The translations under genes and the position numbers were made by a program. From Paracoccus suum (GTDB taxonomy: Bacteria; Pseudomonadota; Alphaproteobacteria; Rhodobacterales; Rhodobacteraceae), in NCBI RefSeq assembly GCF_003324675.1, contig NZ_CP030918.1:1770001-1802000 (forward strand): 32,000 nt of DNA. The letters are read 5' to 3'. Below, in pieces: positions 1 to 13,589 of the stretch (positions are counted from its first letter, which is position 1; each line of letters starts with the position of its first letter). The notes under the pieces are model-generated. The model saw only the letters and a program-made list of their open reading frames with translations, had not been told where the DNA came from and did no database searches.

Positions 1-699
1 GGAGCCTGAGAGGTTCCGGTTCAGCCGGTGCTCTGCGCCGCTCGCGTGACCGAGTTCATGCAAGGCCGTCCGGTGCCAGTTGATCGGCTCGAAATAGGCG
101 GCTGGCGGAGGGACTTGCACGTAGTCGAGCGACGGAACGTAGAACGCCCGGTTGCCGCCAATGCGGAAATCGATGCCGGTCGCTTTGATGAGCGCCTCCA
201 CCTGGGGCTCGATCATGCCGGGCGGCGGCGGCGGCGCGGTCGCCTCGATGTCTTCGGGCAGGTCGTCGCATTGCGCCGTGTTGAACACCGTGAAGCGCTT
301 CAGGAACGGGATCGCCTGCGCTTCCTCGCCAGCCTCGAAGGCGCGGCGCTTCTCGTCCTCCGGCGTGAAGCGGTCGGCATAGACGACGGTGGTGCCGCGC
401 TCGCCCTTGCGGACATGGCCGCCGAGCGACAGTGCCTGGCGGAAGGTGAGCCAGCCCTGGCCGGGAAAGCCGTGCTCGATGACGGCTCCCCAGAGGATCA
501 GGACATTGATGCCGCTGTAGCTTCGCGAAGTTGCGGCGTTGCGCGGCAGGCCAAGCGGGGCCTTGGCCGCCGACGTGCCCCAAGGCTGGACCCACGGCAC
601 GCGGCCAGCTTCCAGCTCCCCGATGATCTTGTCGGTGATTTCGTCATAGAGGTTCGCCCGGTCGGCTCCGGCACGAACGCGGCGATCGTTTCTGGACAT
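1..699 (-). CDS. ardC: ArdC-like antirestriction protein (ssDNA-binding N-domain plus zincin metallopeptidase); N-terminal 233 aa, C-terminus beyond the left edge
   Basis: My own translation of the minus strand from ATG at 699-697: MSRNDRRVRAGADRANLYDEITDKIIGELEAGRVPWVQPWG...GWLTFRQALSLGGHVRKGERGTTVVY...HRTALHELGHASGAEHRLNR. It shows the ArdC-N/DUF1738-type signature and an HEXXH (HELGH) zincin motif. The frame stays open to position 1. GGAGAG RBS lies 5 nt upstream of the ATG. Confidence 0.85.
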   Translation of the reverse strand, partial: MSRNDRRVRAGADRANLYDEITDKIIGELEAGRVPWVQPWGTSAAKAPLGLPRNAATSRSYSGINVLILWGAVIEHGFPGQGWLTFRQALSLGGHVRKGERGTTVVYADRFTPEDEKRRAFEAGEEAQAIPFLKRFTVFNTAQCDDLPEDIEATAPPPPPGMIEPQVEALIKATGIDFRIGGNRAFYVPSLDYVQVPPPAAYFEPINWHRTALHELGHASGAEHRLNRNLSGS

Positions 700-857
700 C
701 GCGGCTCTCCGCGACGGGCGCCGGAAGCCTCTCCTCCAGCTCTCTACCCGTCACGGCAAAACCGGTCCGCACTCTCACTCTAATAGTTCAGGCACTGCAT
801 CGTGTGGTCGGGCAGCGCCATGATCGGCGCGGTGCGATCAAGTGAAACGGCGCGTGA

Positions 858-1115
858 TCAAGCAGTGCGCTCGGACCGCCAGTGGCCATCTTGGCCCTTG
901 GCGAGCCGCCAGTTCTGCACGGTTACGAGCGTGCCGCGGGCGGTGCGATAGTCGGGAACGGTGAGACGGATGGAATCGCCTTCGGCGCGCCATTCCGCGA
1001 TGACGGTGACGCCGTCGCCGAACTCGACCAGGCAGTCGGGCGCGGCCTTCCCATCATCGTCGACGGTGACGCGGCCTTTCCGAAAGGCATGGCTATGAGG
1101 AAACAGGAAACGCAT
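858..1115 (-). CDS. Hypothetical small protein (85 aa)
   Basis: ATG start preceded by AAGGAGAAAG RBS. GC-rich third positions. Same strand as the neighbouring island genes. No family recognised. Confidence 0.55.
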   Translation of the reverse strand: MRFLFPHSHAFRKGRVTVDDDGKAAPDCLVEFGDGVTVIAEWRAEGDSIRLTVPDYRTARGTLVTVQNWRLAKGQDGHWRSERTA

Positions 1116-1188
1116 TCGGGCGCTTTCTCCTTCTCGGCGTCTTACGCCTTGAAGATCGCGCTGGACGATCGCCTGACAAGGGGGCGTT

Positions 1189-1256
1189 GCGGGGTCTCCC
1201 CGCAGAAGGGGGTGTGCCGGCGACCTTGGCGCCGGCCAGGGGGAAGGCTTTCCCCC
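1189..1256. other. Cluster of three GC-rich stem-loops in the intergenic region
   Basis: gcgggg-tct-ccccgc (1189-1203), gccggcg-accttgg-cgccggc (1216-1236), gggggaa-ggct-ttccccc (1239-1256). Located 16 nt downstream of the stop of the 1272-1649 gene. No clear U-tract on the minus strand. Confidence 0.35.
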
Positions 1257-1271
1257 TTCACCTGAATTTGC

Positions 1272-1649
1272 TCACCTGGTCCCGGCCTGCTTCCGACGAC
1301 GGGCCACGGTACGAACGCCAGCACTATCGCCCATGGTCATGTCACCCAGGCTATGGAGATGAAGCGCCGGATGCGATGGCAGCGTCACCGTAAGTTCGAG
1401 CTTGCCGCCGACGGCCTCGACATAGCTGCGCAGCGTCGAGAGATACATATCCGCCTGCTTTTCGATCTTGGACACCGACGGCTGCTTGATGTTGAGGGCC
1501 GAGGCGATGTCTTCCTGCGCTTTGCCGGCGATCTGGCGCAGCTCGCGCAGACCCTCGACCTCCTGCCGCAGTTCCTGATAGCGCGCTTCGATAGCTGCCT
1601 GTTCGTCAGCAGGAAGCCCGGCAATGATTTCGTTCAGGCTCCGAGCCAT
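1272..1649 (-). CDS. XRE-family HTH protein, HigA-like antitoxin of the kind partnered with Gp49/DUF891 (RelE/ParE-superfamily) toxins; orphan copy 1
   Basis: 125 aa. The stretch LRELRQIAGKAQEDIASALNIKQPSVSKIEKQADMYLSTLRSYVEAVGGKLELTV is the typical HTH plus C-terminal beta segment of this antitoxin class. It sits directly downstream of a toxin remnant. Confidence 0.85.
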   Translation of the reverse strand: MARSLNEIIAGLPADEQAAIEARYQELRQEVEGLRELRQIAGKAQEDIASALNIKQPSVSKIEKQADMYLSTLRSYVEAVGGKLELTVTLPSHPALHLHSLGDMTMGDSAGVRTVARRRKQAGTR

Positions 1650-1650
1650 C

Positions 1651-1788
1651 TCAACGTCCCTTCTTTGCGGATTTCAGGCTTTCCACATGCTCGGAAAACC
1701 GTAGATCCGCTTTTGCGATGAGCTGCCGGTAGAACCGCTGCTGACTCTCGCCGGATGCATCGCCCGCTACGCGCCCGATAGTGCTATT
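1651..1788 (-). pseudogene. C-terminal remnant of a Gp49/HigB-like (RelE/ParE superfamily) toxin gene
   Basis: The open frame gives NSTIGRVAGDASGESQQRFYRQLIAKADLRFSEHVESLKSAKKGR*. This resembles the conserved toxin C-terminus (..GGDK.GD.R[WF]Y...IP.AD.l...Hl..l...G). There is no in-frame start. An upstream ATG (1799-1797) is out of frame and terminates after 10 codons. The stop lies 1 nt before the antitoxin ATG. Confidence 0.6.
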
Positions 1789-1794
1789 TCAACG

Positions 1795-1823
1795 TTCATA
1801 GCCTCAAAGCTATACCGGATCAA
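1795..1823 (-). promoter_or_regulatory. Candidate sigma70-type promoter P1 with a palindromic operator in the spacer
   Basis: The minus strand reads TTGATC (1823-1818), a 17-nt spacer, then TATGAA (1800-1795). The spacer contains ATAGC-N6-GCTAT. It is homologous to the element at 7010-7038. Confidence 0.5.
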
Positions 1824-1903
1824 CAAAACCACACGCGACCAAGCGAGTGATCATCCACCGTGGAGTACCGCCCCGATCGCTAGACACTTTATCGAGCGGA
1901 CTT

Positions 1904-2791
1904 TCAGATCGTGAAAGCGGGTCTCGGTCCCGGCCAATCGGGATCGGTTTCCATCTGGCTTGCGAGATCGGCTGCTGCGACCCGCCTCAGGCTAGACGCC
2001 GCAATGAATTGGACACCGAGCGCCAACCTGACAACCGAAAGCCGCTTCAAGCCTGCGGGCTTATATCGGCTCGCAACATAGGGCGGCAGGCTCGCCACCA
2101 CGGCTTGAACTCGCGCATCGTCGCGGTGCGGCCGTGCGGTAGCCATACGCTGGGCGAGCACAGCCAAGTTGTGACCGTCCTTGCCTTTTCGGAAAGAGTC
2201 GGGATCGACACCATCCCAAACCAATGCTGCCTTTATGGACAGCTCGGCGGCCATGCAGATTGGCTGTACTACCGAGTCGTGGCTGAACGAGGTGGGCAAT
2301 GTGTTCGCCACGTCTTCGAGATTCGACCCCGCCATCCGCCAGAGCGTCACCGCGCCAGCATTGCGTTGCTCAACCTCGTTGAGACCCATTGTGAAATCGT
2401 GAATGTCCGCGCCGGCAAAGGCGACGCCAGCGGCGATCGACCGATCTTGGCGGCACCAATTCCACCATTCCTCCGCATTCTCGAAGCCCGTTATCTGCCA
2501 AGGCTGGAGAGAATTCTGACCGAACAGGACGGGGAAAACGGCCTTTCGCACCTGATCGACCGAAGCTACCAATCCGATTCCGGCACCGGGCCAACTCGTC
2601 TCGACTTCCGGCATCATGGCCGCATAAGCATCCATGATGCGTTTGACCTCGGGATTGCCGCCAACCCCCATCACGAAACTGGAGCCGAGCAACTCCATCG
2701 CGGCCCGGAACGGCCGCTGGTGAATGTGAACACCATTCTCGGCATATTTCAGATCCAATCGGCGCAGATCGTCCGCCGTCCACCTACTCAT
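1904..2791 (-). CDS. Uncharacterised protein (295 aa) with a HEPN-like helix; last gene of the operon
   Basis: ATG with AGGAGA RBS 6 nt upstream and a 9-nt gap to the preceding gene. The segment AELSIKAALVWDGVDPDSFRKGKDGHNLAVLAQRM (R201-x5-H207) resembles the HEPN R-x4-6-H / K.HDL..L helix. Confidence 0.75.
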   Translation of the reverse strand: MSRWTADDLRRLDLKYAENGVHIHQRPFRAAMELLGSSFVMGVGGNPEVKRIMDAYAAMMPEVETSWPGAGIGLVASVDQVRKAVFPVLFGQNSLQPWQITGFENAEEWWNWCRQDRSIAAGVAFAGADIHDFTMGLNEVEQRNAGAVTLWRMAGSNLEDVANTLPTSFSHDSVVQPICMAAELSIKAALVWDGVDPDSFRKGKDGHNLAVLAQRMATARPHRDDARVQAVVASLPPYVASRYKPAGLKRLSVVRLALGVQFIAASSLRRVAAADLASQMETDPDWPGPRPAFTI

Positions 2792-2800
2792 TTGGGTCTC

Positions 2801-3631
2801 CTACCGACCGTTGGCTAAGCGCCGGAGGAAGGTTCGCGCGGTAACAAGCACGACGTGGAGACGGAAGGTGCTGTGATCCTCGTCCGAAAGACCGGGGTGC
2901 GATCCTTCGGTGTGCAGCATCTTGAAAAGGCCATTGACGTAGTTCTTCCCGTCTCCGGTCCATTCATTGCGGCTCGTCGACAAGAAGCCGATTTCCGCCA
3001 GCAATGCCCGGCGATTTTCGGAGCTGGGCCTTTTCGCTGCATCTTCCGGGCGGACGTTGCGGGCAATGTCGTCGAACAGGCTTTCAAGGAATGTGCGAAG
3101 TTGTCCGTTGCAGGCAGCCCAATCGCCGCGGGTGTGCGCCTCGATCGCTTGATCGAGATGACCGAGTGGGGTCATGAAAGCGAAGGATTTTAGGAGCCGA
3201 TGCACTTCATCGTCGGTTTCGGGAAGCTGGATTTCTCCCGGCAGCGCGGCTCGAATTGATGCGTTCCGACCATTGTCGTCCCAGACCAACACAAAGGCAT
3301 CGCGGGCAAGCCCACGGGCAAACGCCGTCTGCAATGGATGAATCGCGTCGGGTTGTGCCAGCAGCGCCGCTTGGCGCACGACGGCTTCGCCGAGCGTCAT
3401 GCGACCATCGAGCGTGTCGAGGATTGCATCGACGCGCTGGACGACAATGCGTCCAAGCAGATCGCATTTTTTCGCGACGCTGATGCCGGTATCTGACGAA
3501 ATCTCATCCTCAAGCGCGAGACGAAGCACAACCTGGTTGAAGCGCGCCTGGCTGTGCTGTTCGAGCAGTTCGACGGCAGCAATCAGGGTCGGACGGGTGA
3601 AGGGAGCTGATTGCATTGGCGGGCTACTCAA
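2801..3631 (-). CDS. Uncharacterised protein (276 aa from TTG at 3631, or 271 aa from ATG at 3616); fifth gene of the operon
   Basis: Coherent protein-like translation. The start either overlaps the ATPase stop by 8 nt (TTG) or lies 7 nt after it (ATG). The C-terminal helical region is LRTFLESLFDDIAR...LFKMLHTEGSHPGLSDEDHSTFRLHVVLVTARTFLRRL. No family recognised. Confidence 0.75.
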   Translation of the reverse strand: MSSPPMQSAPFTRPTLIAAVELLEQHSQARFNQVVLRLALEDEISSDTGISVAKKCDLLGRIVVQRVDAILDTLDGRMTLGEAVVRQAALLAQPDAIHPLQTAFARGLARDAFVLVWDDNGRNASIRAALPGEIQLPETDDEVHRLLKSFAFMTPLGHLDQAIEAHTRGDWAACNGQLRTFLESLFDDIARNVRPEDAAKRPSSENRRALLAEIGFLSTSRNEWTGDGKNYVNGLFKMLHTEGSHPGLSDEDHSTFRLHVVLVTARTFLRRLANGR

Positions 3632-5387
3632 ACCGCAGGCCGAATAGCCCCCCAGTGTCGGTCGCGTCGGTCAGCTTCGTGTCCATGACATGGGAGCGGA
3701 TATTGAACCCGGCCTTGAACCCTTCACGCGGCAGCGCGTCAGAGTTCATTGTGACAATGTACTGAAACCCGGCAGCCTCAGCCCGTTCGGCGCCGAGTTG
3801 CAACGCCTTAGCAACCTGCCTTTCGTCCACCCCATCGAATAGATGGCTGTCATGGACCAGAAAGCCGGGACCGCGCCCATTCTTAAGGCTAATCTCGGTC
3901 AACATGAGATCGAAGCAGAATATCTGCATATTGGTAATGCCCTTGCTTCGTTGTCCATCGATATGGACCTCGAATTGGGGGCCGCTTCCGGTCTCGCCAA
4001 TCGTTAGGCTGCCAGCCTTTTCGTAAAGGGACTCCGAGAGCGACTCGAAAATGAGGATAGCCTCGCGGATGATGTCGGTCCGCTCGTGAATATCGTCGCG
4101 TAGCGCCTTGGTCAGGTTGGCCCGTTCGATGTCGAGTTCAGCCTTGGTGCTTTCGATCCGTTCAGCGGTATCGAGCCGCTGGCGAAGTCCCTCGACCTCA
4201 GCCTCGGCCCGGCCGGCTTCTTCGCGCAGCGATGTATAATGTTCGAGTGCTCCACCGGAGCGCAGCACACCCATTATCTGACGACGCCGACGGTCGCGCT
4301 CGGCTGTGCGCTGATCGCGTTCAGCGATGCGGGCCTCTGCCGAGGTGATCTCGGCGGTCAAGTGCGCGCGCCGGTTCTCGATGATAGTTCGGTGGAAGCG
4401 CTCCACCTCGTCGAAACGCCGCCGCACCATGTCGGGGAGGACGACGCCGGCCTCCGCATAGAGTTTCGTAACGTCGCCCAAGTCGGGCGCATCCTCATCA
4501 ACCAGCGACGCGCGAAGCTGTTGCAGGAGATCGCCGTCGATCACATTCTCGACGTTCATCCCGTCAATTTCGCGCGTAATTTCGTTCGCCTCACGCTCCA
4601 GAGCTTTGTATTCAGGCACTACCTCAAACGTTTCAAGCTGCTGGCGAAGCCGCACGGCACGAGCCTCCGCGACAGTCAGCTTCGTTCTGAGATCGGCCGC
4701 TTTGCCGAAGAAGCGGCCAAGATCGCCGCTGCGGGCTGCCTTACGCAGTTCCTGAGCGACCTTCTCCTGCGCGCGCAGTTCCTGAAAGCGGCCGGGAATA
4801 CTCCAGTCGAGGCCAAGCAGATAGCAGATCGAGACCTGCTGATCCCACGGCTGCTGCATTCCCGAATGTTGCATTGGCTGCTGAAAGCCGCCGCTGTTCT
4901 GACGACGGACGAAATAGGAGAAGAGCGAGCGGAACGACGGCTGGAAACGCTCGGCTTCGTCGCCCGCCGAAATGGGCAGGTCGAACCAAAGCTGACCGAG
5001 GTTGGCTTTCCAGTTCTCATTCGATAACTCGAACAGGCCGGCGCGCGTGTCGAACTGCGGCGGGATCGGCCAGTTCTCGACGGCGCCATTGACAAAGACC
5101 CGGCTCGGCTTGGCGCCGCTACGGGCCGCCGAGATGGTTTCTTGCGCAATGTCGACGGAGACGTCGAAGGTCCATGCCGTCAGCGCATCAGAACGGAATA
5201 TGCTATCCTTGCGCGCGTCGGCGCCAAACAAGAAATGGACCAGCTCGATGAAACTGGTCTTGCCCGCACCATTCCTCGACTGGCGATCGTTGGCGCCTTC
5301 GCTCTTGTCGGCCAGCAGGATGTTCAAACCCGGCTTGAAGGTCAGTGTCTTGAAAGACGCGAGGTCGCTGCCGAAACGGCGGATCAT
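3624..5387 (-). CDS. ABC-3C-type ABC/SMC-like ATPase with a coiled-coil insert (DUF2326-like C-terminus), 587 aa
   Basis: Walker A NGAGKTS (aa 39-45). Long Arg/Glu/Leu-rich coiled-coil at roughly aa 200-470. Signature-like GQRSKGITNMQIFCFDLML. Walker B/D-loop GFLVHDSHLFDGVD. ATGA start/stop overlap with the upstream 81-aa gene. Confidence 0.85.
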   Translation of the reverse strand: MIRRFGSDLASFKTLTFKPGLNILLADKSEGANDRQSRNGAGKTSFIELVHFLFGADARKDSIFRSDALTAWTFDVSVDIAQETISAARSGAKPSRVFVNGAVENWPIPPQFDTRAGLFELSNENWKANLGQLWFDLPISAGDEAERFQPSFRSLFSYFVRRQNSGGFQQPMQHSGMQQPWDQQVSICYLLGLDWSIPGRFQELRAQEKVAQELRKAARSGDLGRFFGKAADLRTKLTVAEARAVRLRQQLETFEVVPEYKALEREANEITREIDGMNVENVIDGDLLQQLRASLVDEDAPDLGDVTKLYAEAGVVLPDMVRRRFDEVERFHRTIIENRRAHLTAEITSAEARIAERDQRTAERDRRRRQIMGVLRSGGALEHYTSLREEAGRAEAEVEGLRQRLDTAERIESTKAELDIERANLTKALRDDIHERTDIIREAILIFESLSESLYEKAGSLTIGETGSGPQFEVHIDGQRSKGITNMQIFCFDLMLTEISLKNGRGPGFLVHDSHLFDGVDERQVAKALQLGAERAEAAGFQYIVTMNSDALPREGFKAGFNIRSHVMDTKLTDATDTGGLFGLRFE

Positions 5388-5629
5388 GGTTGAACCCTCC
5401 GCACCAGGCCGCGATCGAAGTCAACGGCACCAATCGTGAAGAGCAGGTCGAGCGAGAGAATGAACCACTGATAGTCAATGGGAGCATTGGGCGCATGAAG
5501 CGAACGGCGTCCGCGCATCTCGTCCCACAGCCGCGACATCGTCATCGGTCGCTTTAGAATATCGAGAACCTCTGCGCCAACGCCAATGAGCGCGCGATCG
5601 GGACGGACATGCTTTGTCGGGAGGATCAT
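5384..5629 (-). CDS. ABC-3C middle component-like small protein (81 aa)
   Basis: Its size, position between the effector and the ATPase, and pattern (PDRALIGVGAEVLDILKRPMTMSRLWDEM....IDYQWFILSLDLLFTIGAVDF) are typical of the small MC proteins. ATGA overlaps at both ends. Confidence 0.8.
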   Translation of the reverse strand: MILPTKHVRPDRALIGVGAEVLDILKRPMTMSRLWDEMRGRRSLHAPNAPIDYQWFILSLDLLFTIGAVDFDRGLVRRVQP

Positions 5630-6540
5630 GATGCCTCCACAGAAATGATGGTCGGATCTTCGAAGATGTCGCAGCTATCGAAAAAATAAGCGAGGACTGC
5701 CAGCGCCGCTCCCTGACGCTTCGGCTCGCCATTGAAGCCGGCATAATCCTGAAGGTGCTTGAAAATCGTGTCGGCCGGAAGATCGAGAGCTTTCAGCTCG
5801 GCATATCGCAGTCGGAAAGCCTCGGCGATGCGCTCGCCGAGATCGGGACGGGGAATTTTCTGGAAGAATGTATCAACGAGCGCCGACTTCCGTCGACCAA
5901 TGCGCAGAAACAGGCCCGATTCCTCGGATAGTGCGTTTTTTTCCAGCTTTTCCGGCGACGGCGGCGTCAGTGGCGGATCGCTTGGATTGGGCTCCTGCCG
6001 CTGGAGCGCCTCGATGATCGGCACCAGATCAGACATGACGAGGCGATCCACGATCGCTATCGAAGCCGCAGGACCGAAGAGGGCCTGAAGCGCGGCCAGA
6101 TCGAGCATCATGGTAAGATCCAGCAACTCCGGCTCGGACCAAGTGGTAATGAGCAGCGGCGCATGAGCCTGACGAAGGCCGTCAATATGCTGAACCGCGT
6201 TCGGCGGGAGTCCGCGCCCGTCGTTATGGACGAAGACCCACTCCAGCATGTTGCCGTTCCAATGGGCACGGGCACCGTGAAAGTCTTCATCGACTTTGGC
6301 GATGAGGTCGGCTTCCTTCATGGCATCGGGGGCGTAGCACTGGAAAACCGAGCCGGAGCTGATCCGGCGGCCATCGCATTTCAGGTCCCCATAGGGACCG
6401 TAGGGGCGGACCTCCTCGAAATCAGCACCGAGGGCATGGCCTGCGAGAAGCACGAACCAATCCTGAAAGGCGGTGCCTTTTTTGGTGTGAAACGCCAAAC
6501 GGAAACGATCAACGTAGATGGACCGCTGCAACTCATCCAT
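5626..6540 (-). CDS. ABC-3C effector-like protein (304 aa): Mrr/PD-(D/E)xK-like N-terminal domain plus helical C-terminal domain
   Basis: Start taken at ATG 6540 (MDELQRS...), overlapping the XRE stop as ATGGATGA. The N-terminus FQDWFVLLAGHALGADFEEVRPYGPYGDLKCDGRRISSGSVFQCY resembles the Mrr-cat motif FE..v..ll...G....GDgGiDG....vQcK. The C-terminal half is helical, as expected for the shared C-terminal domains of ABC-3C effectors. Confidence 0.8.
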   Translation of the reverse strand: MDELQRSIYVDRFRLAFHTKKGTAFQDWFVLLAGHALGADFEEVRPYGPYGDLKCDGRRISSGSVFQCYAPDAMKEADLIAKVDEDFHGARAHWNGNMLEWVFVHNDGRGLPPNAVQHIDGLRQAHAPLLITTWSEPELLDLTMMLDLAALQALFGPAASIAIVDRLVMSDLVPIIEALQRQEPNPSDPPLTPPSPEKLEKNALSEESGLFLRIGRRKSALVDTFFQKIPRPDLGERIAEAFRLRYAELKALDLPADTIFKHLQDYAGFNGEPKRQGAALAVLAYFFDSCDIFEDPTIISVEAS

Positions 6541-6913
6541 GGCGCCGCCTTGGCGTCGGATCGTCGCTCTTCTTCCGCACCGATGCGGCTCTGACAGGTA
6601 CAAGATCGCCAAGATGATGAATCCGCAGCACCGGCCGCTTGGGTAGCTTGACAGTCAGCTCCAATTCGCCGCCGACGGCTTCCACATAATTGCGCAAAGT
6701 CGAGAGGTGCATGTCACTCTGCTTCTCGATCTTGGAGACGGACGGCTGCGTAATATTCAAAGCGGATGCGATATCCGCCTGCGCTTTGCCTGCGATCTGA
6801 CGAAGTTCGCGCAAACCCTCGACCTCTTGTGTCATATCCTGCTGACGCGCATCTATGACGGCCTGCTGGTCGTGAGGAAGGAGAGCATCGATATGGTCGG
6901 TGCTTCTACCCAT
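6533..6913 (-). CDS. XRE-family HTH protein, HigA-like; paralogue of 1272-1649 and first gene of the ABC-3C-type operon
   Basis: Start taken at ATG 6913 (MGRSTDHIDALLPHDQQAVI...), giving 126 aa. Roughly three quarters of the positions are identical by eye to the 1272-1649 product over QEVEGLRELRQIAGKAQ.DIASALNI.QPSVSKIEKQ.DM.LSTLR.YVEAVGG.LELTV. Confidence 0.85.
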   Translation of the reverse strand: MGRSTDHIDALLPHDQQAVIDARQQDMTQEVEGLRELRQIAGKAQADIASALNITQPSVSKIEKQSDMHLSTLRNYVEAVGGELELTVKLPKRPVLRIHHLGDLVPVRAASVRKKSDDPTPRRRHG

Positions 6914-7034
6914 CTTGCTGTCCTTCCTTGATACGTGTTGGCATGGTGACGTTGCTGCCAAACGACAGATCAGCCAATGCCGTGATTCCTTCGACAATAG
7001 ATCTGCGTTTGTATAGCTTTAAGGCTATGTCCGG
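6906..7034 (-). pseudogene. Possible second toxin remnant (weak)
   Basis: The frame without a start codon gives PDIALKLYKRRSIVEGITALADLSFGSNVTMPTRIKEGQQDG*. It aligns loosely with the toxin C-terminus at 1651-1788 ([FL]Y...I..ADL.F...V......K.G). Its TAG overlaps the XRE ATG (GATGGGTAG). Confidence 0.3.
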
Positions 7035-7038
7035 TCAA
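7010..7038 (-). promoter_or_regulatory. Candidate sigma70-type promoter P2 with a palindromic operator, upstream of the XRE/ABC-3C operon
   Basis: The minus strand reads TTGACC (7038-7033), a 17-nt spacer, then TATACA (7015-7010). The spacer contains ATAGC-N6-GCTAT. An ungapped alignment with P1 matches 21 of 29 positions by my hand count. Confidence 0.5.
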
Positions 7039-7327
7039 CGGAAAGGGCGTGTGGCCCGTCCGGCGAGGCTACCGTAGATCGGCGACAGCTCGCGGCCCAG
7101 GCGTCGAGATCATCGACGGCATAGCGGACCCACTTGCCGAACTTGTGGTAGGCAGGTCCGCCGCCGAGCGAGCGGTAGCATTCGAGCGTGTGGGCCGACA
7201 GCGCGAGGTATCGCGCTGCGGCTTCGGTATCGACGAAGCGGATCGGGCCGGCGTCGTCGACAAATTGGGCGCGGCGCAGGATGTCGGGTGTCGGCCAGCG
7301 GCGTTGGGCCTTGGCTTCCTCACGCAT
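7025..7327 (-). CDS. Excisionase/AlpA-type (MerR-like) HTH DNA-binding protein, 100 aa
   Basis: Start taken at ATG 7327 (MREEAKAQ...), overlapping the integrase stop as ATGCGTGA. The segment FVDTEAAARYLALSAHTLECYRSLGGGPAYHKFGKWVRYAVDDLDAWAA matches the excisionase-family HTH pattern. Confidence 0.7.
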   Translation of the reverse strand: MREEAKAQRRWPTPDILRRAQFVDDAGPIRFVDTEAAARYLALSAHTLECYRSLGGGPAYHKFGKWVRYAVDDLDAWAASCRRSTVASPDGPHALSVDRT

Positions 7328-8732
7328 GATCGGCCTCCTGCGCTTCAACTCGCTTGCTGCCGGGCGGCAGGGTCCGGTTCTCACCGCTGCGGTGGCGGAA
7401 GGGCCGGTAGTTTCCGACGCGCGTGCGCGAGGCGTATTTGCCGTCCTCAAACCCGAGCGGCTTGCCGTCCGAGCCGGGGATCGCGGGTGCAGACTCCACG
7501 ACCGGCGCGACGGGCGGCGGCTCCATAGCGGGAGGCGGCGGCGCGGGCGGCTGGTGCTCCACGCCGATCACGTTCATCCGGCGCCGTGTCACGGCTTCCG
7601 CCGCCGCCCGGACAGGCTCGTCCTCGGTGTGGACGTAACGCATGAACATCGTCACCGTCTTGTGGGCGGTGAGCGCCATGCCGACCTTCACCGGCACGCC
7701 GGAGTTGGCGATATCGGTGGCGGAGCGATGCCGGATGCCATGGGTGCCGACATGAGGAAGGCCCGACCGCTCCAGAATGCGCTTCCAGCCTTGGTAGTAG
7801 GTGTAGGCCGACATCGGCTTTTCCGGGTCAAAGATCGAAGGGCAGACATAAGGCGAATCCACCATCAGCGGCGCGTTCTCGAAAAGGCGCTGGGCCTCGG
7901 CGCTCATCGGCTTCGACATCCCGCCCGTCTTGCTGTCCGGCCAGACGACGCGGCGGTTGTCGAAATCGACCCAGGCCCATTCGAGTTCGGTGATCTCCGA
8001 CATGCGTGCGGCAAACTCGAACTGAAGCCGGATGGCCAGAACAATGAACGGGTGTTCCAGTCCTTCCGCCTCGGCACGGTCAAGATATTCGAAGAGTTTG
8101 CGCATTTCCCCATCGGTGATGAGGCGGGTCTTGCCGCGTTCGGGGTATTTCGGGACATGGCGGCAGGGATTGGAGCCATCAGGCCGCAATCCCCAGACCT
8201 CGGCCACGTTGAACATTTTCCGGCACATCGCCAGAACGCGGTTCGCGCTGGTGGGGGACTTCGCCATCTTCTTCATGAGATCGGCAATGTCGGCGCGCGT
8301 AACATCCGGCACCTTCAATTGCCCGAGCTTCGGAATGAGGTGGCGCTTGCCCCGTTCCCGATTGGACTGGACGGTCGAGGGCTTATTGCGACCCTCAGAA
8401 TAATCGGTGATGAAACGATCGAAGAGTTCTTTGACCGTCGGCGCCTGACGGGTCGCCGTCCGCTCGGCGCTGGGATCGCCGCCACGCCGGACCTCGGCGA
8501 GCCAGTCCTGCGCGACCCCACGCGCCTGTTCGACGGTGATCTCGCCGTAGCGGCCAATGGCGGGCTTTCGGCGCTGACCGCTGTTCGTGACATAGGCGAT
8601 CATGAAAGTTTTCCGACCAGCGGGCGTGACCTTCACGAGAAAGCCGGGTATCGTCGTATCGCGGAGTTCGTAGTCGCGTTCTTGCGGGGTTGCGGCGTCA
8701 ACAGCCGTCTTGGTGAGCTTGATTTTGGCCAT
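7320..8732 (-). CDS. Tyrosine-type site-specific integrase (P4-like, DUF4102-type N-terminus), 470 aa
   Basis: N-terminus MAKIKLTKTAVDAATPQERDYELRDTTIPGFLVKVTPAGRKTF. Catalytic region HGIRHRSAT...TAHKTVTMFMRYVH. AAGGAGG RBS 7 nt upstream of the ATG. Confidence 0.95.
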   Translation of the reverse strand: MAKIKLTKTAVDAATPQERDYELRDTTIPGFLVKVTPAGRKTFMIAYVTNSGQRRKPAIGRYGEITVEQARGVAQDWLAEVRRGGDPSAERTATRQAPTVKELFDRFITDYSEGRNKPSTVQSNRERGKRHLIPKLGQLKVPDVTRADIADLMKKMAKSPTSANRVLAMCRKMFNVAEVWGLRPDGSNPCRHVPKYPERGKTRLITDGEMRKLFEYLDRAEAEGLEHPFIVLAIRLQFEFAARMSEITELEWAWVDFDNRRVVWPDSKTGGMSKPMSAEAQRLFENAPLMVDSPYVCPSIFDPEKPMSAYTYYQGWKRILERSGLPHVGTHGIRHRSATDIANSGVPVKVGMALTAHKTVTMFMRYVHTEDEPVRAAAEAVTRRRMNVIGVEHQPPAPPPPAMEPPPVAPVVESAPAIPGSDGKPLGFEDGKYASRTRVGNYRPFRHRSGENRTLPPGSKRVEAQEADHA

Positions 8733-8752
8733 TCCTAACCTCCTTTGAGGCC

Positions 8753-8788
8753 GGATTTCAGGTGCAAAATAGGAGCACCTGGAAATCC
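8753..8788. promoter_or_regulatory. Imperfect 13/14-bp inverted repeat just upstream of the integrase start
   Basis: ggatttcaggtgc (8753-8765) and gcacctggaaatcc (8775-8788) are complementary apart from a 1-nt indel, with a 9-nt loop. It lies 21 nt upstream of the int ATG. Confidence 0.45.
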
Positions 8789-8869
8789 AGCCATGGCGTG
8801 TGCCCGGTTAGGTATGGATGTGTTGATAGCCGAAAAAAGCTAGTGCCTACAGACGGTTATCGGGAAATC

Positions 8870-8896
8870 GGATACCCCCGGATAGACAAAGGATAG
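8870..8896 (+). repeat. Three phased GGATA(G) direct repeats next to the att core
   Basis: GGATA at 8870-8874, GGATAG at 8880-8885 and GGATAG at 8891-8896. Spacing is 10 and 11 nt, about one helical turn. Candidate arm-type integrase or Xis binding sites. Confidence 0.35.
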
Positions 8897-8910
8897 GCCA
8901 TCTGGGCTCG

Positions 8911-8966
8911 CTTAAAATCCCTGGGGCCTGAGGCCCGTGCGGGTTCGAGTCCCGCGGCCCGCACCA
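8911..8966 (+). tRNA. tRNA-Leu(UAA) 3' partial copy (anticodon loop to CCA), not a complete gene; probable att site of the island
   Basis: Reads cttaaaa (anticodon loop, TAA), tccct (3' anticodon stem), gg-ggcc-tga-ggcc-cgt (long type-II variable arm), gcggg-ttcgagt-cccgc (T arm), ggcccgc-a-cca (3' acceptor strand, A73, CCA). No complementary 5' acceptor strand (GCGGGCC), D arm or 5' anticodon stem is present upstream. Confidence 0.75.
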
Positions 8967-9081: not shown

Positions 9082-10878
9082 ATGGCCCGCAGAACGACCC
9101 CTGTGGGTGACCGCCCCACCACCCGGCGCATTGGCGCCCTTGGCGCGCTGTGGCCCTTCCTGCGACCCTACCGCGGCCTCCTCGCGGCGGCGATGCTGGC
9201 CCTGGCGCTGACATCGGCCATCAGCCTCATCCTGCCTCTGGCGGTGCGCCGCGTCGTCGACGGCTTTTCGCAGGGCGCGGGTCTGCTGGACGAATATTTC
9301 GGCGCGGCGATCGGCATCATCGCCTTGCTCGCGCTCGCGACCGGCCTTCGCTACTACCTTGTCACCCGCCTTGGCGAGCGGGTGGTGGCCGATATCCGCA
9401 AGGCCGTGTTCGACCGCGTGATCGGCATGTCGCCCGCGTTTTTCGAGCGCGTGATGACCGGCGAGATCATCAGCCGCATCACCACCGACACGACGCTGAT
9501 CCTTTCGGTCATCGGTTCGTCTGTCTCGCTGGCGCTGCGCAACATGCTGGTGTTCGCGGGCGGCATGGTGATGCTGATGATCACCTCGCCCAAGCTGACG
9601 GGCCTTGTCCTGCTGATCGTGCCCATCGTGCTGGTACCGATCATCGTCCTTGGCCGGCGTCTGCGCGGGCTGTCGCGGCAGAACCAGGACTGGATCGCGT
9701 CCTCGTCCGGCGCCGCGTCGGAAAGCCTGCTGGCTGCGCAGACAGTGCAGGCCTTTACCCATGAGGGCGCCAGCCGGGCCAACTTTGCCGAAGTGACCGA
9801 GGCCAGCTTTGCCGCCGCGCGCCGCCGCATCGCCACCCGCGCCGTGATGACCGTGCTTGTCATCTTCCTGATATTCGCGGGCGTCGCTGGCGTGCTGTGG
9901 ATCGGCGCACGCGACGTCCGCCTGGGCGACATGACGGTCGGCGGGCTCGTCCAGTTCGTGATCTACGCCATTATGGTTGCCAGCAGCGTCGGCGCACTGT
10001 CCGAGTTGTGGGGCGAGTTGCAGCGGGCCGCGGGCGCGACAGAGCGGTTGGGCGAGTTGCTGGCGACCCGTGACACCATCGCCGATCCCGCCAACCCTGT
10101 GGCTCTGCCGCGCCCGGTCGCCGGGCGCATTGCGCTGCGGAACGTCAGCCTCAGCTATCCCTCGCGACCGGGGGCGCAGGCGCTGGAGGATGTCAGCCTC
10201 GATATTGCCGCCGGCGAGACGGTCGCCCTGGTCGGCCCCTCGGGGGCGGGCAAGACCACCGTGGTGCAGATGATCCTGCGCTTCTGGGATCCCGATCAGG
10301 GCCGTGTCACCATCGATGGCATCGATCTGCGCGACATGGCACGCGACGATTTCCGCCGCGCCATCGCCTTGGTGCCGCAAGAGCCGGCGATCTTTGCCAC
10401 CAGCGCGCGGGAGAATATCCGCTTTGGCCGCCTCGATGCCACCGACGCCGAGGTCGAGGCCGCCGCGCGCGCGGCCTATGCCCATGACTTCATCGCCGAT
10501 CTGCCCCAGGGCTATGACAGCCCGCTGGGCGAGCGGGGGGTGATGCTGTCCGGCGGCCAGCGCCAGCGCATCGCCATTGCCCGCGCCATGTTGCGCGACG
10601 CGCCGATCCTGCTTCTTGACGAGGCGACCAGCGCGCTCGATTCCGAGAGCGAACGGCAGGTCTCGGGCGCGGTCGACCGCCTCGCGGCCGGGCGCACGAC
10701 GGTGATTGTCGCCCATCGGCTGGCAACGGTCAAAAAGGCCGACCGTATCGTCGTGATGGACGGCGGGCGGATCGTGGCTCAGGGCACCCATGCGCAACTG
10801 GTGGCCGAGGGCGGCCTCTATGCCCGCCTGGCGCGGCTGCAGTTCACCGACGGGCCAGTGCAGACGGCTGCTGAGTAG
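9082..10878 (+). CDS. ABC exporter, fused transmembrane and ATP-binding domains (ABCB/MsbA-like), 598 aa
   Basis: N-terminal TM region followed by Walker [10 protein letters not shown], signature [14 protein letters not shown] and Walker [13 protein letters not shown]. Confidence 0.9.
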
Positions 10879-11007
10879 GGGCCAAGGGGGCCGCGCCACG
10901 CCCCCGCCGACGCTGCGTCCAGCTTGCCTCCGGCGTCCTTTCGCTTGCCCCACCAACTGCTTTCAGCCCATCTTGCCGCCCACAAATTGCCAAAAACCGG
11001 GGGGGAC

Positions 11008-12903
11008 ATGGCCAGCAGCATGAATACGCTCGCCGAGCGTAATGCGATCGAGGCGCAGGGCGATTATGCGGACCGCGATCTACCGGTGACGCTGTTTGCC
11101 TACCTGACCCGCATCCGCGATCGCGTGCCGGACCGGCCCGCGATCAGCTTTCAGCTGCTGTCCGGCCCGCGCACACGCGCCTGCACCCTGACCTGGGACG
11201 AATATCACCAGCGCGTCACCGAATGCGCCAACCTGCTGCGCGGTCTCGGGATCGGGCCAACCGACACCGTCGCCTATCTTCTGCCGAACTGCCTTGAGGC
11301 GGCGGTGGTGCTGGTCGCCGGCGCGACCGCCGGCATCGTCAACCCGATCAACCCGCTGCTGGAGCCAGAGCAGATCGGCGCCATCCTGCGCGAGACCAAC
11401 GCCAAGGTGCTGGTCACCCTGCGCCCGTTCCCCAAGTCGGACCTGGCGCAAAAGGCGGCCGCCGCCGTCGCCATGGCGCCCGATGTGCACACTGTCCTGC
11501 AGGTCGATCTTGGCGTTTACCTCGGCGGGCTGAAGCGTGTTGCCGCCGGTCTGATGCGGCCTCGCGTCAAGACCCGCCACCACGCGAAGGTCATGGACTT
11601 CGAGGCCGAGGCGTCCTCGCGCAAGCATACTCGCCTGAACTTTGACGACCCGCAGCACGATCGCATCGCCGCCTATTTCCACACGGGCGGGACCACTGGC
11701 ATGCCCAAGGTCGCGCAGCATCGCTATTCGGGGATGATCTACAACGGCTGGCTCGGCTCGGAGTTGCTGTTCACCGAGGAAGACGTCCTGCTGTGCCCGC
11801 TGCCCCTGTTTCACGTCTTTGCCGCCTATCCGGTGCTGATGTCCTGCATCGGCTCGGGCGCGCACATGGTCATGCCGACGCCGGCGGGCTATCGCGGCGA
11901 CGGCGTTCTCGACAACTTCTGGAAGCTGGTCGAGCGGTGGCAGGCGACTTTCCTGATCGCGGTGCCCACCGCCATCGCGGCGCTGATGCAGCGCCCGGTC
12001 GATGCCGACGTCAGCAGCCTGCGTACCGCCATCTCGGGCAGCGCGCCCCTGCCGATCGAGCTTTACAACCGCTTCAAGCAAGCGACCGGGGTTGAGATTG
12101 CCGAGGGCTATGGCCTGACGGAATGCACCTGCCTCGTCAGCTGCAATCCCATCGACGGCAAGAAAAAGGTCGGCTCGGTCGGTATTCCCTTTCCCTACAC
12201 CGAGGTCCGCATCCTGCGCCGCGCCGATGGCAAGCTGCAGGAATGCGCGGTGGACGAGATTGGCGAGATCTGCGTGTCGAACCCCGGCGTCTTTGAGGGC
12301 TCGACCTATACCGAGGTTGACCGCAACCGCGACCTGTTCGCCGAGGGGCGCTTCCTGCGCACCGGCGATCTTGGGCGGCTCGACGCGGATGGCTATCTGT
12401 GGATCACCGGCCGGGCCAAGGACCTGATCATCCGCGGCGGACACAACCTCGACCCGGGTATCATCGAGGAGGCACTGATGTCGCATCCGGCCGTGGCGGT
12501 CGCCGGCGCCATCGGCCAGCCAGACGCCTTCGCCGGAGAGTTGCCTTGCGCCTATGTCGAGTTGGTCGCCGGCATGACTGCCACCCCGGACGAACTGCTG
12601 ACCCATTGCCGCCAGCGCATCACCGAGCGCGCGGCGGTGCCCAAGCATATCGAAATCCTGCCCGAACTGCCCAAAACGGCGGTGGGCAAAGTGTTCAAGC
12701 CGCAGCTGCGCGCCCTCGCGACGGCGCGCGTTCTGGATGTTGCGCTCGCCCCCCTCGGCGCTTCGGTTGGCGCGGTGGACGACGACAAGACGCGCGGCAT
12801 GCTCGCCCATGTCCGCCGCAAGGCCGGCGCTGACGAGGCAGCGATCCGGCAGAAGCTGGGCGAGTTCTCCGTCGCCTGGGAGTGGGAGCAGGGCGGGGAC
12901 TAA
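11008..12903 (+). CDS. Acyl-CoA synthetase / AMP-dependent ligase, 631 aa
   Basis: Start taken at ATG 11008 (MASSMNTLAE...). AMP-binding motif YFHTGGTTGMPK; further motifs GYGLTE, TGDLG and K at PKTAVGKVFK. Confidence 0.9.
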   Translation: MASSMNTLAERNAIEAQGDYADRDLPVTLFAYLTRIRDRVPDRPAISFQLLSGPRTRACTLTWDEYHQRVTECANLLRGLGIGPTDTVAYLLPNCLEAAVVLVAGATAGIVNPINPLLEPEQIGAILRETNAKVLVTLRPFPKSDLAQKAAAAVAMAPDVHTVLQVDLGVYLGGLKRVAAGLMRPRVKTRHHAKVMDFEAEASSRKHTRLNFDDPQHDRIAAYFHTGGTTGMPKVAQHRYSGMIYNGWLGSELLFTEEDVLLCPLPLFHVFAAYPVLMSCIGSGAHMVMPTPAGYRGDGVLDNFWKLVERWQATFLIAVPTAIAALMQRPVDADVSSLRTAISGSAPLPIELYNRFKQATGVEIAEGYGLTECTCLVSCNPIDGKKKVGSVGIPFPYTEVRILRRADGKLQECAVDEIGEICVSNPGVFEGSTYTEVDRNRDLFAEGRFLRTGDLGRLDADGYLWITGRAKDLIIRGGHNLDPGIIEEALMSHPAVAVAGAIGQPDAFAGELPCAYVELVAGMTATPDELLTHCRQRITERAAVPKHIEILPELPKTAVGKVFKPQLRALATARVLDVALAPLGASVGAVDDDKTRGMLAHVRRKAGADEAAIRQKLGEFSVAWEWEQGGD

Positions 12904-12965
12904 GGCTGTAGGGGCCGGCCGGCGTTTGGCCGCCCTACCGTTCGCGCGTGATCGGCGGGTGGGCC

Positions 12966-13589
12966 TTAACTCGCGAGCGTCTTGCGGCCGCGGGCGACAA
13001 GAGCTTGCAGGTCGGCGAGGCTGTTCTCGCCGAACACCGCCTCATCGCCGCAGATCAGGGTCGGGGTGCCGACAAGCCCCATATGGTCTGCAAGTTCGAT
13101 CGACCGGTCGATCTGCGCGCTGACCGCCTCGCCCTGCATGTCCTTTTCCAGCCGGGGTATATCCAGCCCGACCTTGCGCGCAACGCGCAGGACGCTGGCC
13201 TGTTCGGCCCGGCCCGACATGCTCAGCAGCCCGCTGTGCATCTGCCAGTACTTGCCCTGCTGTAGCGAGGCGAGCGCGGCGCGGGCGGCAAATTCCGAAC
13301 CTTCCCCAAACACCGGCCATTCATGCAGCACCACCCGCAGCTTCGGATCGGCGCCGATCAGCTTTTGCATCGTCAGCAGCATCTTGCGGCAGAAGGGGCA
13401 GTTGTAGTCGAAAAACTCGGTCAGGGTGATGTCGCCGTCGGGATTGCCGAGGACCGGCGCGCCGGGATCGCGCTCCAGCGCCTTGCGCAGTTCCTCGGGC
13501 ATGGCATTGGCCCGCTGGGCGGCCGCCGGCAAGGCAGCCGCGCCGCTCGCAGCGGCGATCAGGGCGAGAGCGTGGCGGCGGGTCGGCAT
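12966..13589 (-). CDS. DsbA-family thiol:disulfide oxidoreductase, secreted, 207 aa
   Basis: Start taken at ATG 13589 (MPTRRHALALIAAASGAAALPAAA, a signal/Tat-like leader) with AAGGAAAC RBS. CPFC active site within FFDYNCPFCRK. Confidence 0.85.
   Translation of the reverse strand: MPTRRHALALIAAASGAAALPAAAQRANAMPEELRKALERDPGAPVLGNPDGDITLTEFFDYNCPFCRKMLLTMQKLIGADPKLRVVLHEWPVFGEGSEFAARAALASLQQGKYWQMHSGLLSMSGRAEQASVLRVARKVGLDIPRLEKDMQGEAVSAQIDRSIELADHMGLVGTPTLICGDEAVFGENSLADLQALVARGRKTLAS

Follow-up and report, generated by a model that had tools for sequence, protein, structure and literature searches.

We analyzed a window of 32,000 nt of Paracoccus suum (assembly GCF_003324675.1, contig NZ_CP030918.1, positions 1,770,001 to 1,802,000, forward strand), which carries two genes for HigA-like proteins of the XRE type, designated XRE1 (1272 to 1649) and XRE2 (6533 to 6913); positions given without a locus name refer to this whole stretch. 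XRE1 is an orphan antitoxin belonging to the core of an integrative (conjugative) element (ICE), XRE2 is the first gene of an ABC-3C (Lamassu-like) operon, and every relevant gene of the region lies on the minus strand. For comparison, a scan of a genome collection seeded with XRE1 and XRE2 yielded 80 loci (L001 to L080), mainly from Hyphomicrobiales and Sphingomonadales, including a sister island in Devosia (L003), an Enterovirga island (L004), and the Kaistia loci L001/L002. Toxin-less relatives came from Brucella sp. (L081), Azospirillum (L082), a metagenomic ICE (L083), Prosthecomicrobium (L084), Rhodopseudomonas (L085), Bradyrhizobium (L086), and Xanthomonas (L087). In addition, a metagenome survey was seeded with the ABC-3C effector (EFF), and the upstream gene content was read at each locus.

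As originally predicted, XRE1 and XRE2 are close paralogues (70% identity over 113 aa, E = 3e-55), with an identical recognition helix and a shared operator type. Both matched Pfam HTH_37 (E = 4e-8), their best matches in the PDB were HigA2 (7EWC, E = 3e-8) and HigA3 (6LTY, E = 1.5e-5) of Mycobacterium tuberculosis, and PADLOC returned HTH_VI (E = 2e-6 to 9e-6); the matches were confined to HTH_37 and generic helix-turn-helix (HTH) families, with neither a WYL domain nor membership in the C-protein family. XRE1 shares 93 to 96% identity with the ICE-core antitoxins of Enterovirga and Kaistia. For XRE2, identity is 100% with a P. suum protein, 81% with a Brucella protein (P0012/L081), and 81 to 92% with cassette-borne proteins; its clade consists of 126- to 128-aa proteins with a C-terminal ...RRRHG tail, always ahead of the same effector, MC6, and ABC genes.

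An intact toxin open reading frame of 121 to 122 aa ends 1 to 4 nt before the XRE start in about 70 of the 80 related loci, and these neighbors are Gp49 toxins (PF05973, E = 4e-21). This genomic context confirms that XRE1 and XRE2 are antitoxins of the class whose partners are Gp49 toxins. In the window, no intact cognate toxin stands beside the antitoxin at either copy. Upstream of XRE1, a remnant of a Gp49/HigB-type toxin (1651 to 1788, minus strand) retains the last ~45 codons and now forms the XRE1 leader. When the six-frame fragments of the whole window were screened with a protein profile built from 52 distinct intact toxins, this remnant was the sole match (1654 to 1788, E = 7.9e-19), and a separate DNA profile of the toxin matched it over 1782 to 1652 (E = 2.5e-34), bearing out the prediction of a start-less toxin C terminus. 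By tblastn, the remnant was 65 to 95% identical to the 80 loci. It corresponds to the C-terminal third of the toxin; the N-terminal ~75 to 78 codons are gone, an in-frame start codon is absent, and the conserved GDKSG motif is substituted (GDASG). The DNA of the remnant is 96% identical to that of L003, above the value for XRE1 coding DNA (93%), and third-position variability is reduced in the last ~15 to 20 toxin codons.

The second stretch proposed as a toxin remnant (6906 to 7034), upstream of XRE2, did not hold up. The protein profile gave E = 56, which is noise, the DNA profile gave no match, and tblastn matched the sister island L003 only. The candidate was rejected as a demonstrable remnant, its 5' part being the Xis stop codon plus a conserved promoter-operator. 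When its last 70 nt were compared with toxin 3' ends, anchored at the ATG and ungapped, identity was 43%, against 26 ± 4% for shuffles and 23 to 36% off register (z about 4). A similarly weak anchored signal was seen in L083 and none in seven other toxin-less relatives. We regard the toxin signal at this place as no more than a faint trace. Neither remnant peptide had a match in Pfam or NCBIfam, the first remnant having needed the family-specific profile built from neighbors.

The site of the deleted toxin gene at copy 2 is now the XRE2 leader (6914 to 7009, minus strand; about 99 nt, with the ribosome-binding site AAGGAAGGA), in which the toxin profile finds no match. The leader evolves fast, since it is only 83% identical to that of L003. 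Between operator and XRE, relatives hold 366 nt of toxin where the window has 99 nt, and the toxin gene has therefore been lost at this copy; the 32-kb window contains no further toxin-profile match. In Xanthomonas, the leader keeps a piece matching toxin nucleotides 53 to 98 (DNA profile, E = 1e-4), which is independent evidence that toxin-less heads descend from toxin-bearing ones and suggests that the toxin was deleted more than once. Leader lengths, obtained by arithmetic on the coordinates of the metagenome survey, vary between 42 and 114 nt, most of them falling at 93 to 100 nt, and sporadic toxin truncations occur elsewhere in the family (L001/L002, L007, L019, L021, and L073 to L075). 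In the window, the toxin genes of both copies appear to have been removed by internal deletions, each keeping the promoter-operator and a leader.

The operon headed by XRE2 continues with the ABC-3C effector (5626 to 6540; Pfam CTD10, E = 1e-14; PADLOC PDC-M68A, E = 1e-18), the middle component MC6 (5384 to 5629; Pfam MC6, E = 4.5e-24), and an ABC/SMC-like ATPase with DUF2326 and CTD10 (3624 to 5387; DUF2326, E = 2e-43; PDC-M68B, E = 9e-166; LmuB, E = 5e-14). PADLOC assigned the effector and ATPase to the candidate system PDC-M68, and this assignment, together with the weaker LmuB match, is the reason why the system is called Lamassu-like ABC-3C here; as PDC-M68 is a candidate system in PADLOC-DB, the anti-phage role of the operon is putative. 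The effector shows 87 to 97% aa identity across seven genomes. Consecutive genes overlap, by 8 nt at XRE2/EFF (ATGGATGA, 6540 to 6533), 4 nt at EFF/MC6, 4 nt at MC6/ABC, and 8 nt at ABC/g276 (TTG start). The overlap behind the predicted translational coupling of XRE2 to the effector gene is thus confirmed, and it is kept in the gene calls of six relatives (L081, L082, and L084 to L087).

Upstream of the operon lie a tyrosine integrase (7320 to 8732; Pfam Phage_integrase, Arm-DNA-bind_3, and Phage_int_M) and an Xis/AlpA-like HTH_17 excisionase (7025 to 7327; Pfam HTH_17, E = 9e-7). Homologues of the integrase, 64 to 95% identical, occupy the same relative position in at least 30 related loci, and Xis is conserved upstream of the toxin-antitoxin module. 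The conserved ICE core of the family comprises Int, Xis, the promoter-operator, the Gp49 toxin, XRE, a cargo slot, a 79-nt element, and ArdC, and the region appears to be the integrase-proximal end of such an alphaproteobacterial element. The Xis gene begins within the last 8 nt of the integrase gene, its ATG overlapping the integrase stop, and its own TAG stop falls within the palindrome of the operator. An 8-nt overlap of the form ATGnnTGA was observed both at int/xis (7320 to 7327) and at XRE2/effector (6533 to 6540). From int to g295 the genes are codirectional, almost without intergenic space except for 111 nt holding the operator and leader.

The predicted promoter-operator and selection on the XRE proteins

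The two stretches flagged upstream of the XRE genes in the original prediction are copies of a family-wide predicted promoter-operator that covaries with the XRE recognition helix. In copy 2 (7010 to 7038, minus strand), the -35 hexamer TTGACC (7038 to 7033) and the -10-like hexamer TATACA (7015 to 7010) are separated by a 17-nt spacer, and the palindrome ATAGC-N6-GCTAT (7028 to 7013) fills the spacer and overlaps the -10 hexamer. Copy 1 (1795 to 1823, minus strand) consists of a -35-like TTGATC (1823 to 1818), the same palindrome (1813 to 1798), and a -10-like TATGAA (1800 to 1795). When the 70 nt that precede the toxin start were aligned for the different loci, they gave the near-invariant consensus TTGAC(C/T)-N3-4-CATAGC-N6-GCTAT, which adjoins the toxin ATG directly or within 6 nt in 73 of the 80 loci. 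The palindrome occurs once per locus in 70 of the 80 loci and twice in L003 and L042; the window contains exactly two matches versus 0.21 expected by chance. In nine toxin-less modules, the promoter-operator stands 93 to 99 nt upstream of the XRE ATG, and the DNA farther upstream is unrelated and does not code for Xis. A reading of the palindrome as an RNA hairpin was disfavored, given its position upstream of the predicted transcription start and its covariation with a protein residue.

Pairs of recognition helix and operator were counted as distinct pairs over all fetched loci, with toxin-linked and toxin-less modules taken together. The helix QPSVSKIE was paired with ATAGC...GCTAT in 79 distinct pairs and QPSVSQIE with ATAGG...CCTAT in eight, with no discordant pair, so that the base at one operator position (C or G) goes with the identity of a single helix residue (K or Q). 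The Q/G class covers toxin-linked ICE modules as well as toxin-less modules, one of them from Xanthomonas. This covariation is the strongest in silico evidence that the XRE proteins are likely to bind the palindrome.

The modules resemble HigBA2 (Rv2022c-Rv2021c) and HigBA3 of M. tuberculosis in the homology of the XREs to HigA2 and HigA3, in the toxin-first gene order of the XRE relatives, and in a palindromic operator with an N6 spacer. HigA2 of M. tuberculosis binds ATATCAC-N6-GTGATAT in electrophoretic mobility shift assays and also regulates several unrelated genes (PMC11205783); the N6 spacing is common to this site and to ATAGC-N6-GCTAT. Unlike in HigBA, neither window copy has a functional toxin, the operator lies in the promoter spacer upstream of the toxin start rather than inside the toxin gene, and the XRE2 antitoxin gene overlaps into a defense operon.

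In most of L001 to L080 (for instance, L004:6598 to 6640; the ~30 nt ahead of the toxin ATG), the toxin start codon was observed within, or 1 to 6 nt after, the -10-like hexamer (GCTAT-ATG), and transcripts should therefore start inside toxin codons 2 to 4. A leaderless-mRNA reading of this start was rejected, because the -35 hexamer would be about 6 nt too near the ATG. It may be that only read-through RNA from int-xis allows the toxin to be translated, with XRE and cargo expressed from the operator-controlled promoter; toxin synthesis would then be coupled to ICE excision.

Relative to L003, which shares both toxin deletions, dN/dS was 0.09 for XRE1 and 0.19 for XRE2. The claim that both toxins were lost and both antitoxins kept stands: no intact toxin exists at either copy, and both XREs are under purifying selection. 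Compared with the toxin-less relatives, the HTH core of XRE2 (residues 31 to 100) had omega values of 0.01 to 0.06, like the effector and the ATPase, versus a dN of 0.34 to 0.48 for its N-terminal 30 residues, which evolve 10 to 25 times faster in dN. The ratio of N-terminal to HTH divergence was 5.8 in toxin-less XREs versus 3.05 in toxin-linked ones. Moreover, XRE2 carries a deviating residue in 3 of the 12 N-terminal columns that are highly conserved, a higher count than in each of the 64 other sequences compared, and XRE1 shows no deviation at the conserved N-terminal columns of the family. An intact XRE was present in every toxin-less relative examined. This pattern fits a history in which DNA binding would have been kept and a toxin-related N-terminal function relaxed, the N terminus of XRE2 being assumed to be the toxin-binding segment by analogy with Vibrio cholerae HigA2 (PMC11006873).

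Probable origin of the two copies and proposed control of the operon

The Enterovirga island L004 is collinear with the window (1 to 1774 at 96% and 7067 to 8966 at 92%), has an intact toxin, and carries no cargo, thus representing an "empty" island. The cassette at 6932 to 1921 is 91.5% identical at the nucleotide level to Brucella locus L081, where the context is unrelated; the homology with that locus ends at 1921, inside g295. Duplication of XRE in situ was rejected, as the proteins closest to XRE2 are cassette-borne, whereas those closest to XRE1 belong to ICE cores. The best explanation for the presence of two copies is that an XRE-headed cassette was captured by homologous recombination, of the Campbell type or by double crossover. 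The cassette would have been captured next to the resident toxin-antitoxin module, and the resident toxin would have been lost afterwards.

A toxin-less unit of operator, ~99-nt leader, XRE, effector, MC6, and ABC recurs in Brucella, Azospirillum, Rhodopseudomonas, Bradyrhizobium, and Xanthomonas, and the metagenomic ICE L083 has the same 111-nt gap between Xis and XRE as the window. In the metagenome survey, an XRE gene was found directly upstream of the effector in 34 loci, that is, in almost every locus with an effector at least 70% identical and enough upstream DNA; the exceptions were L109, L163, and the short-flank locus L151. A near-full-length toxin accompanied 17 of these 34 loci and a truncated toxin one (L099), one ended at the contig end (L124), and 15 had none. 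At effector identities of 68% or less, short C-terminal XRE fragments were seen in L160 to L162 only, and the rest had no XRE. XRE is thus a derived and nearly fixed fourth gene of this ABC-3C subclade, in which the toxin is optional. The suggestion that XRE became linked to ABC-3C through toxin loss in P. suum is not borne out, since about half of the close ABC-3C relatives keep toxin, XRE, and ABC-3C together; the toxin-less repressor would be a clade-wide state and not a local event. In Rhodopseudomonas thermotolerans (L085), the cassette was observed between two 152-aa Polyketide_cyc2 genes (5199 to 5657 and 9601 to 10059), possibly a target duplication or recombination footprint, and it adjoins an unrelated Gp49-HTH_37 pair on the other strand.

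We consider it fairly probable that the HigA-derived XRE2 acts as an autoregulating repressor of the ABC-3C operon. Transcription would start a few nucleotides downstream of 7010 and yield a transcript of leader, XRE2, effector, MC6, ABC, g276, and perhaps g295. XRE dimers would bind ATAGC-N6-GCTAT and repress their own transcription together with that of the defense genes, and such negative autoregulation would hold a potentially self-toxic effector complex at a low, buffered level. Because XRE1 and XRE2 do not differ in recognition helix or in operator type, they would be expected to cross-regulate, with dimers of XRE1 (made from the 1823 to 1795 promoter) and of XRE2 repressing both promoters. 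De-repression could follow when the repressor concentration falls, either because the element has moved into a naive cell (zygotic induction) or because the repressor, as a labile protein of the antitoxin type, is turned over in infection or stress.

The comparison of anatomy, homologies, operator conservation, covariation, co-inheritance, and purifying selection on the HTH core makes an antitoxin turned putative operon repressor a well-supported reading. The repressor half of the original proposal, an antitoxin repurposed as the transcriptional gate of a defense system, is backed in this way, whereas the gate itself, meaning repression and its release, is something that we only infer, along with binding, co-transcription, and the de-repression signal. 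Several points weigh against regulation by XRE2. The support is in silico throughout, and the conserved element is assigned as a putative promoter solely from its conservation; a generic sigma-70 scan calls neither copy, because the -10 hexamer ends in A. The covariation of helix and operator may reflect one or a few ancestral switches and thus be a poor count of lineages. Furthermore, XRE precedes many unrelated cargoes in the ICE family, so that part of the adjacency between XRE and cargo reflects the cargo landing site rather than a dedicated partnership. The operon could also be read through from int-xis, and we found no report in the literature that characterized Lamassu systems need a transcriptional regulator.

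Among the alternatives, the most credible is that the orphan XREs, especially XRE1, serve anti-addiction or immunity by neutralizing Gp49 toxins of related, competing, or incoming ICEs, of plasmids, or of host toxin-antitoxin defenses, their DNA binding being residual. The toxin is very conserved across the ICE family, which makes cross-neutralization plausible, and XRE1 combines its low dN/dS and unaltered conserved N-terminal columns with a position near the anti-restriction gene ardC. Orphan antitoxins are over-represented in the anti-defense leading regions of conjugative elements (PMC11541004), which by analogy may favor such a role. However, the segment of XRE2 that would bind a toxin, if the analogy with HigA2 of V. 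cholerae holds, is the fastest-evolving part of the protein, and anti-addiction leaves unexplained the fixed operator distance, the 8-nt effector overlap, and the co-transfer with ABC-3C into non-ICE contexts. We therefore regard it as unlikely as a general account, applicable mainly to XRE1 and compatible with repression of the operon by XRE2.

A role as a regulator of the ICE life cycle, with XRE controlling int-xis read-through or coupling excision to the toxin and any effect on cargo being incidental, would accord with the Xis stop codon inside the palindrome and with the toxin ATG embedded in the -10 hexamer in most loci, but is very improbable, as the unit of promoter-operator, XRE, and ABC-3C occurs without int-xis in L081, L082, and L084 to L087. 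Least tenable of all is decay in progress, in which the XREs would be leftovers of broken toxin-antitoxin modules, kept for their promoter and encoding proteins without selected function: sporadic toxin truncations and the fast-evolving XRE2 leader would be in line with it, but both XREs are under strong purifying selection, as is the HTH core in toxin-less lineages of several genera, the toxin-less relatives have an intact XRE, and the operator is retained at a fixed distance, all of which argues otherwise.

The proposed control of the operon by XRE2 can be set beside known systems, for HigA-type antitoxins, orphan or multi-target antitoxin regulators, repressor-controlled defense systems, and ABC-3C/Lamassu are each already known. 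Like Lamassu/ABC-3C (LmuA-LmuC-LmuB; PDC-M68), the operon has an effector with CTD10, MC6, and an ABC/SMC-like ATPase in canonical order; unlike Lamassu, the subclade of the window has a conserved fourth gene for a HigA-like XRE with a dedicated predicted promoter-operator, which is missing from more distant effector homologues (63% identity or less). C proteins of restriction-modification systems and the WYL regulators BrxR/CapW are dedicated transcriptional regulators of defense systems. XRE2 resembles them as a small HTH first-gene putative repressor with a palindrome in its own promoter, for which a burst of expression would be expected on entry into a naive cell and buffered expression after it. 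Unlike these regulators, the XREs are of the HigA/HTH_37 type, have antitoxin ancestry, and contain no evident WYL or ligand-sensing domain. Pseudomonas aeruginosa HigA and Escherichia coli MqsA are orphan or multi-target antitoxins acting as regulators. The XREs share with orphan antitoxins the missing toxin, the conserved DNA-binding domain, and residence in a conjugative element near anti-restriction genes, but XRE2 differs in being physically and translationally coupled to a multigene defense system with which it is co-inherited across genera.

The silent-yet-inducible control of potentially self-toxic defense systems is largely unexplained, and a transcriptional regulator of Lamassu/ABC-3C was not found in the literature. 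In the literature searched, which did not extend to the ABC-3C classification, no Lamassu-like subclade was likewise described as being headed by a conserved gene for a HigA-derived repressor with its own defined operator, and no link between Lamassu and XRE or anything specific to this ICE family was found. The locus and its relatives offer a testable case, with a small putative repressor, a 16-bp operator, and natural variants with and without the toxin, and the data trace how an addiction module evolved into a dedicated putative regulator. Should this be confirmed, the pair of operator and XRE could serve as a marker for finding defense cargo and as a simple genetic switch.

The cargo slot and its surroundings in the wider ICE family

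First cargo genes after XRE in the ICE family include GajA (E = 3e-198), a type IIG restriction-modification enzyme (E = 1e-300), PDC-M30/M41 (DUF5131), PDC-S31, an HNH-effector PDC-M68 variant, and SIR2-like, HNH_5, and Mrr-like proteins. Since many cargo genes start 0 to 10 nt after the XRE stop or overlap it, the toxin-antitoxin operon heads defense cargo generally and is the entry point of a defense-cargo hotspot in this alphaproteobacterial ICE family. Locus L042 corresponds to L050 with 2.9 kb inserted directly behind the XRE stop; the inserted segment carries an HNH-type ABC-3C variant and a second, stand-alone promoter-operator (L042:10111 to 10136) without toxin or XRE. This operator lies 215 nt upstream of the resident gajA-gajB (10350 to 13521), a hint of trans-regulation of Gabija. 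The Kaistia loci L001 (1019 to 7378) and L002 carry two XRE copies, the first with an intact toxin and the second 96% identical to XRE1, preceded by the last 88 nt of the toxin and lacking an operator. The two copies are separated by about 5 kb of different cargo that is richer in A+T, and the arrangement looks like an independent case of the same stacking process.

From these arrangements we infer that the segment of operator, toxin 3' end, and XRE serves both as an expression head and as homology for cassette capture. Capture would yield direct repeats of the head, and redundant toxin copies would then be deleted. A broader and more tentative view, possible at best in our judgment, is that the promoter-operator and XRE form a portable control head and landing pad, with an ICE-wide, zygotically induced "defense regulon", and that XRE is a fixed fourth component of the PDC-M68 clade that travels outside ICEs. 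Recombination in toxin-3'/XRE/operator DNA would then stack cassettes under one trans-acting repressor, and the toxin would be dispensable. The stand-alone operator of L042 and the two operators of the window fit this view; no published description was found in which the toxin-antitoxin operon of an ICE family provides a defense hotspot with its promoter and landing pad. In a more radical variant, the fast-evolving N terminus of XRE2 would contact the ABC-3C effector as its antitoxin.

The N-terminal domain of the effector (residues 1 to 190, window 5971 to 6540) had no Pfam or PADLOC match and is 87 to 97% identical across Alpha- and Gammaproteobacteria. By eye, it contains the motif ...YGPYGDLKCDG...VFQCYAP..., which suggests a PD-(D/E)xK-like nuclease. 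Beyond the ATPase lie g276 (2801 to 3631), which has no family match and whose start is probably the ATG at 3616, and g295 (1904 to 2791), with a sub-threshold HEPN match only (Pfam, E = 0.077). Copies of g276 that are 80 to 96% identical follow the ABC gene in L003, L039, L047 to L049, L062, L074, L075, L081, and L082, and g295 is also present in L003 and L081. The slot after the ATPase was observed to be variable, with g276 and g295 in the window and in Brucella, and g271 and Hypoth_Ymh (PF09509) in Azospirillum, the metagenomic ICE, and Xanthomonas. The genes in it look like accessory modules of the system.

At the left edge of the window lies the 5' part of ardC (1 to 699; anti-restriction ArdC N-domain, Pfam ArdcN, E = 3e-43; zincin peptidase, Pfam MPTase-PolyVal, E = 5e-21), which runs past the edge, so that the ICE continues leftwards. 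Integrase, Xis (HTH_17), and ArdC are present in the window, and att sites, relaxase, and type IV secretion system would fall outside it; a search of the island border found no tRNA or Rfam RNA at the junction. The G+C content is 58 to 61% over 1001 to 7000 versus 65 to 72% in most 1-kb windows beyond 9 kb (63 to 64% in four).

A 79-nt, G+C-rich multi-hairpin element (1178 to 1256, minus strand), placed directly ahead of ArdC, delimits the cargo slot at its distal end and occurs between cargo and ArdC in L001 to L009, L014, L018, L044, L054, L068, and others. It forms three short hairpins without a T-run, stands just after XRE1, and in relatives always separates the end of the cargo from ardC. 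Its possible functions are those of a terminator/insulator or of a boundary for recombination at the cargo slot. Beside it, L003 carries an extra 4.5 kb (L003:7460 to 11987) at window position ~1191 to 1194, a second insertion hotspot. Finally, a 395-bp stretch (783 to 1177) that contains an 85-aa open reading frame (858 to 1115, minus strand) is present in the window, L003, and L004 and absent in L001, L006, L007, and L014.

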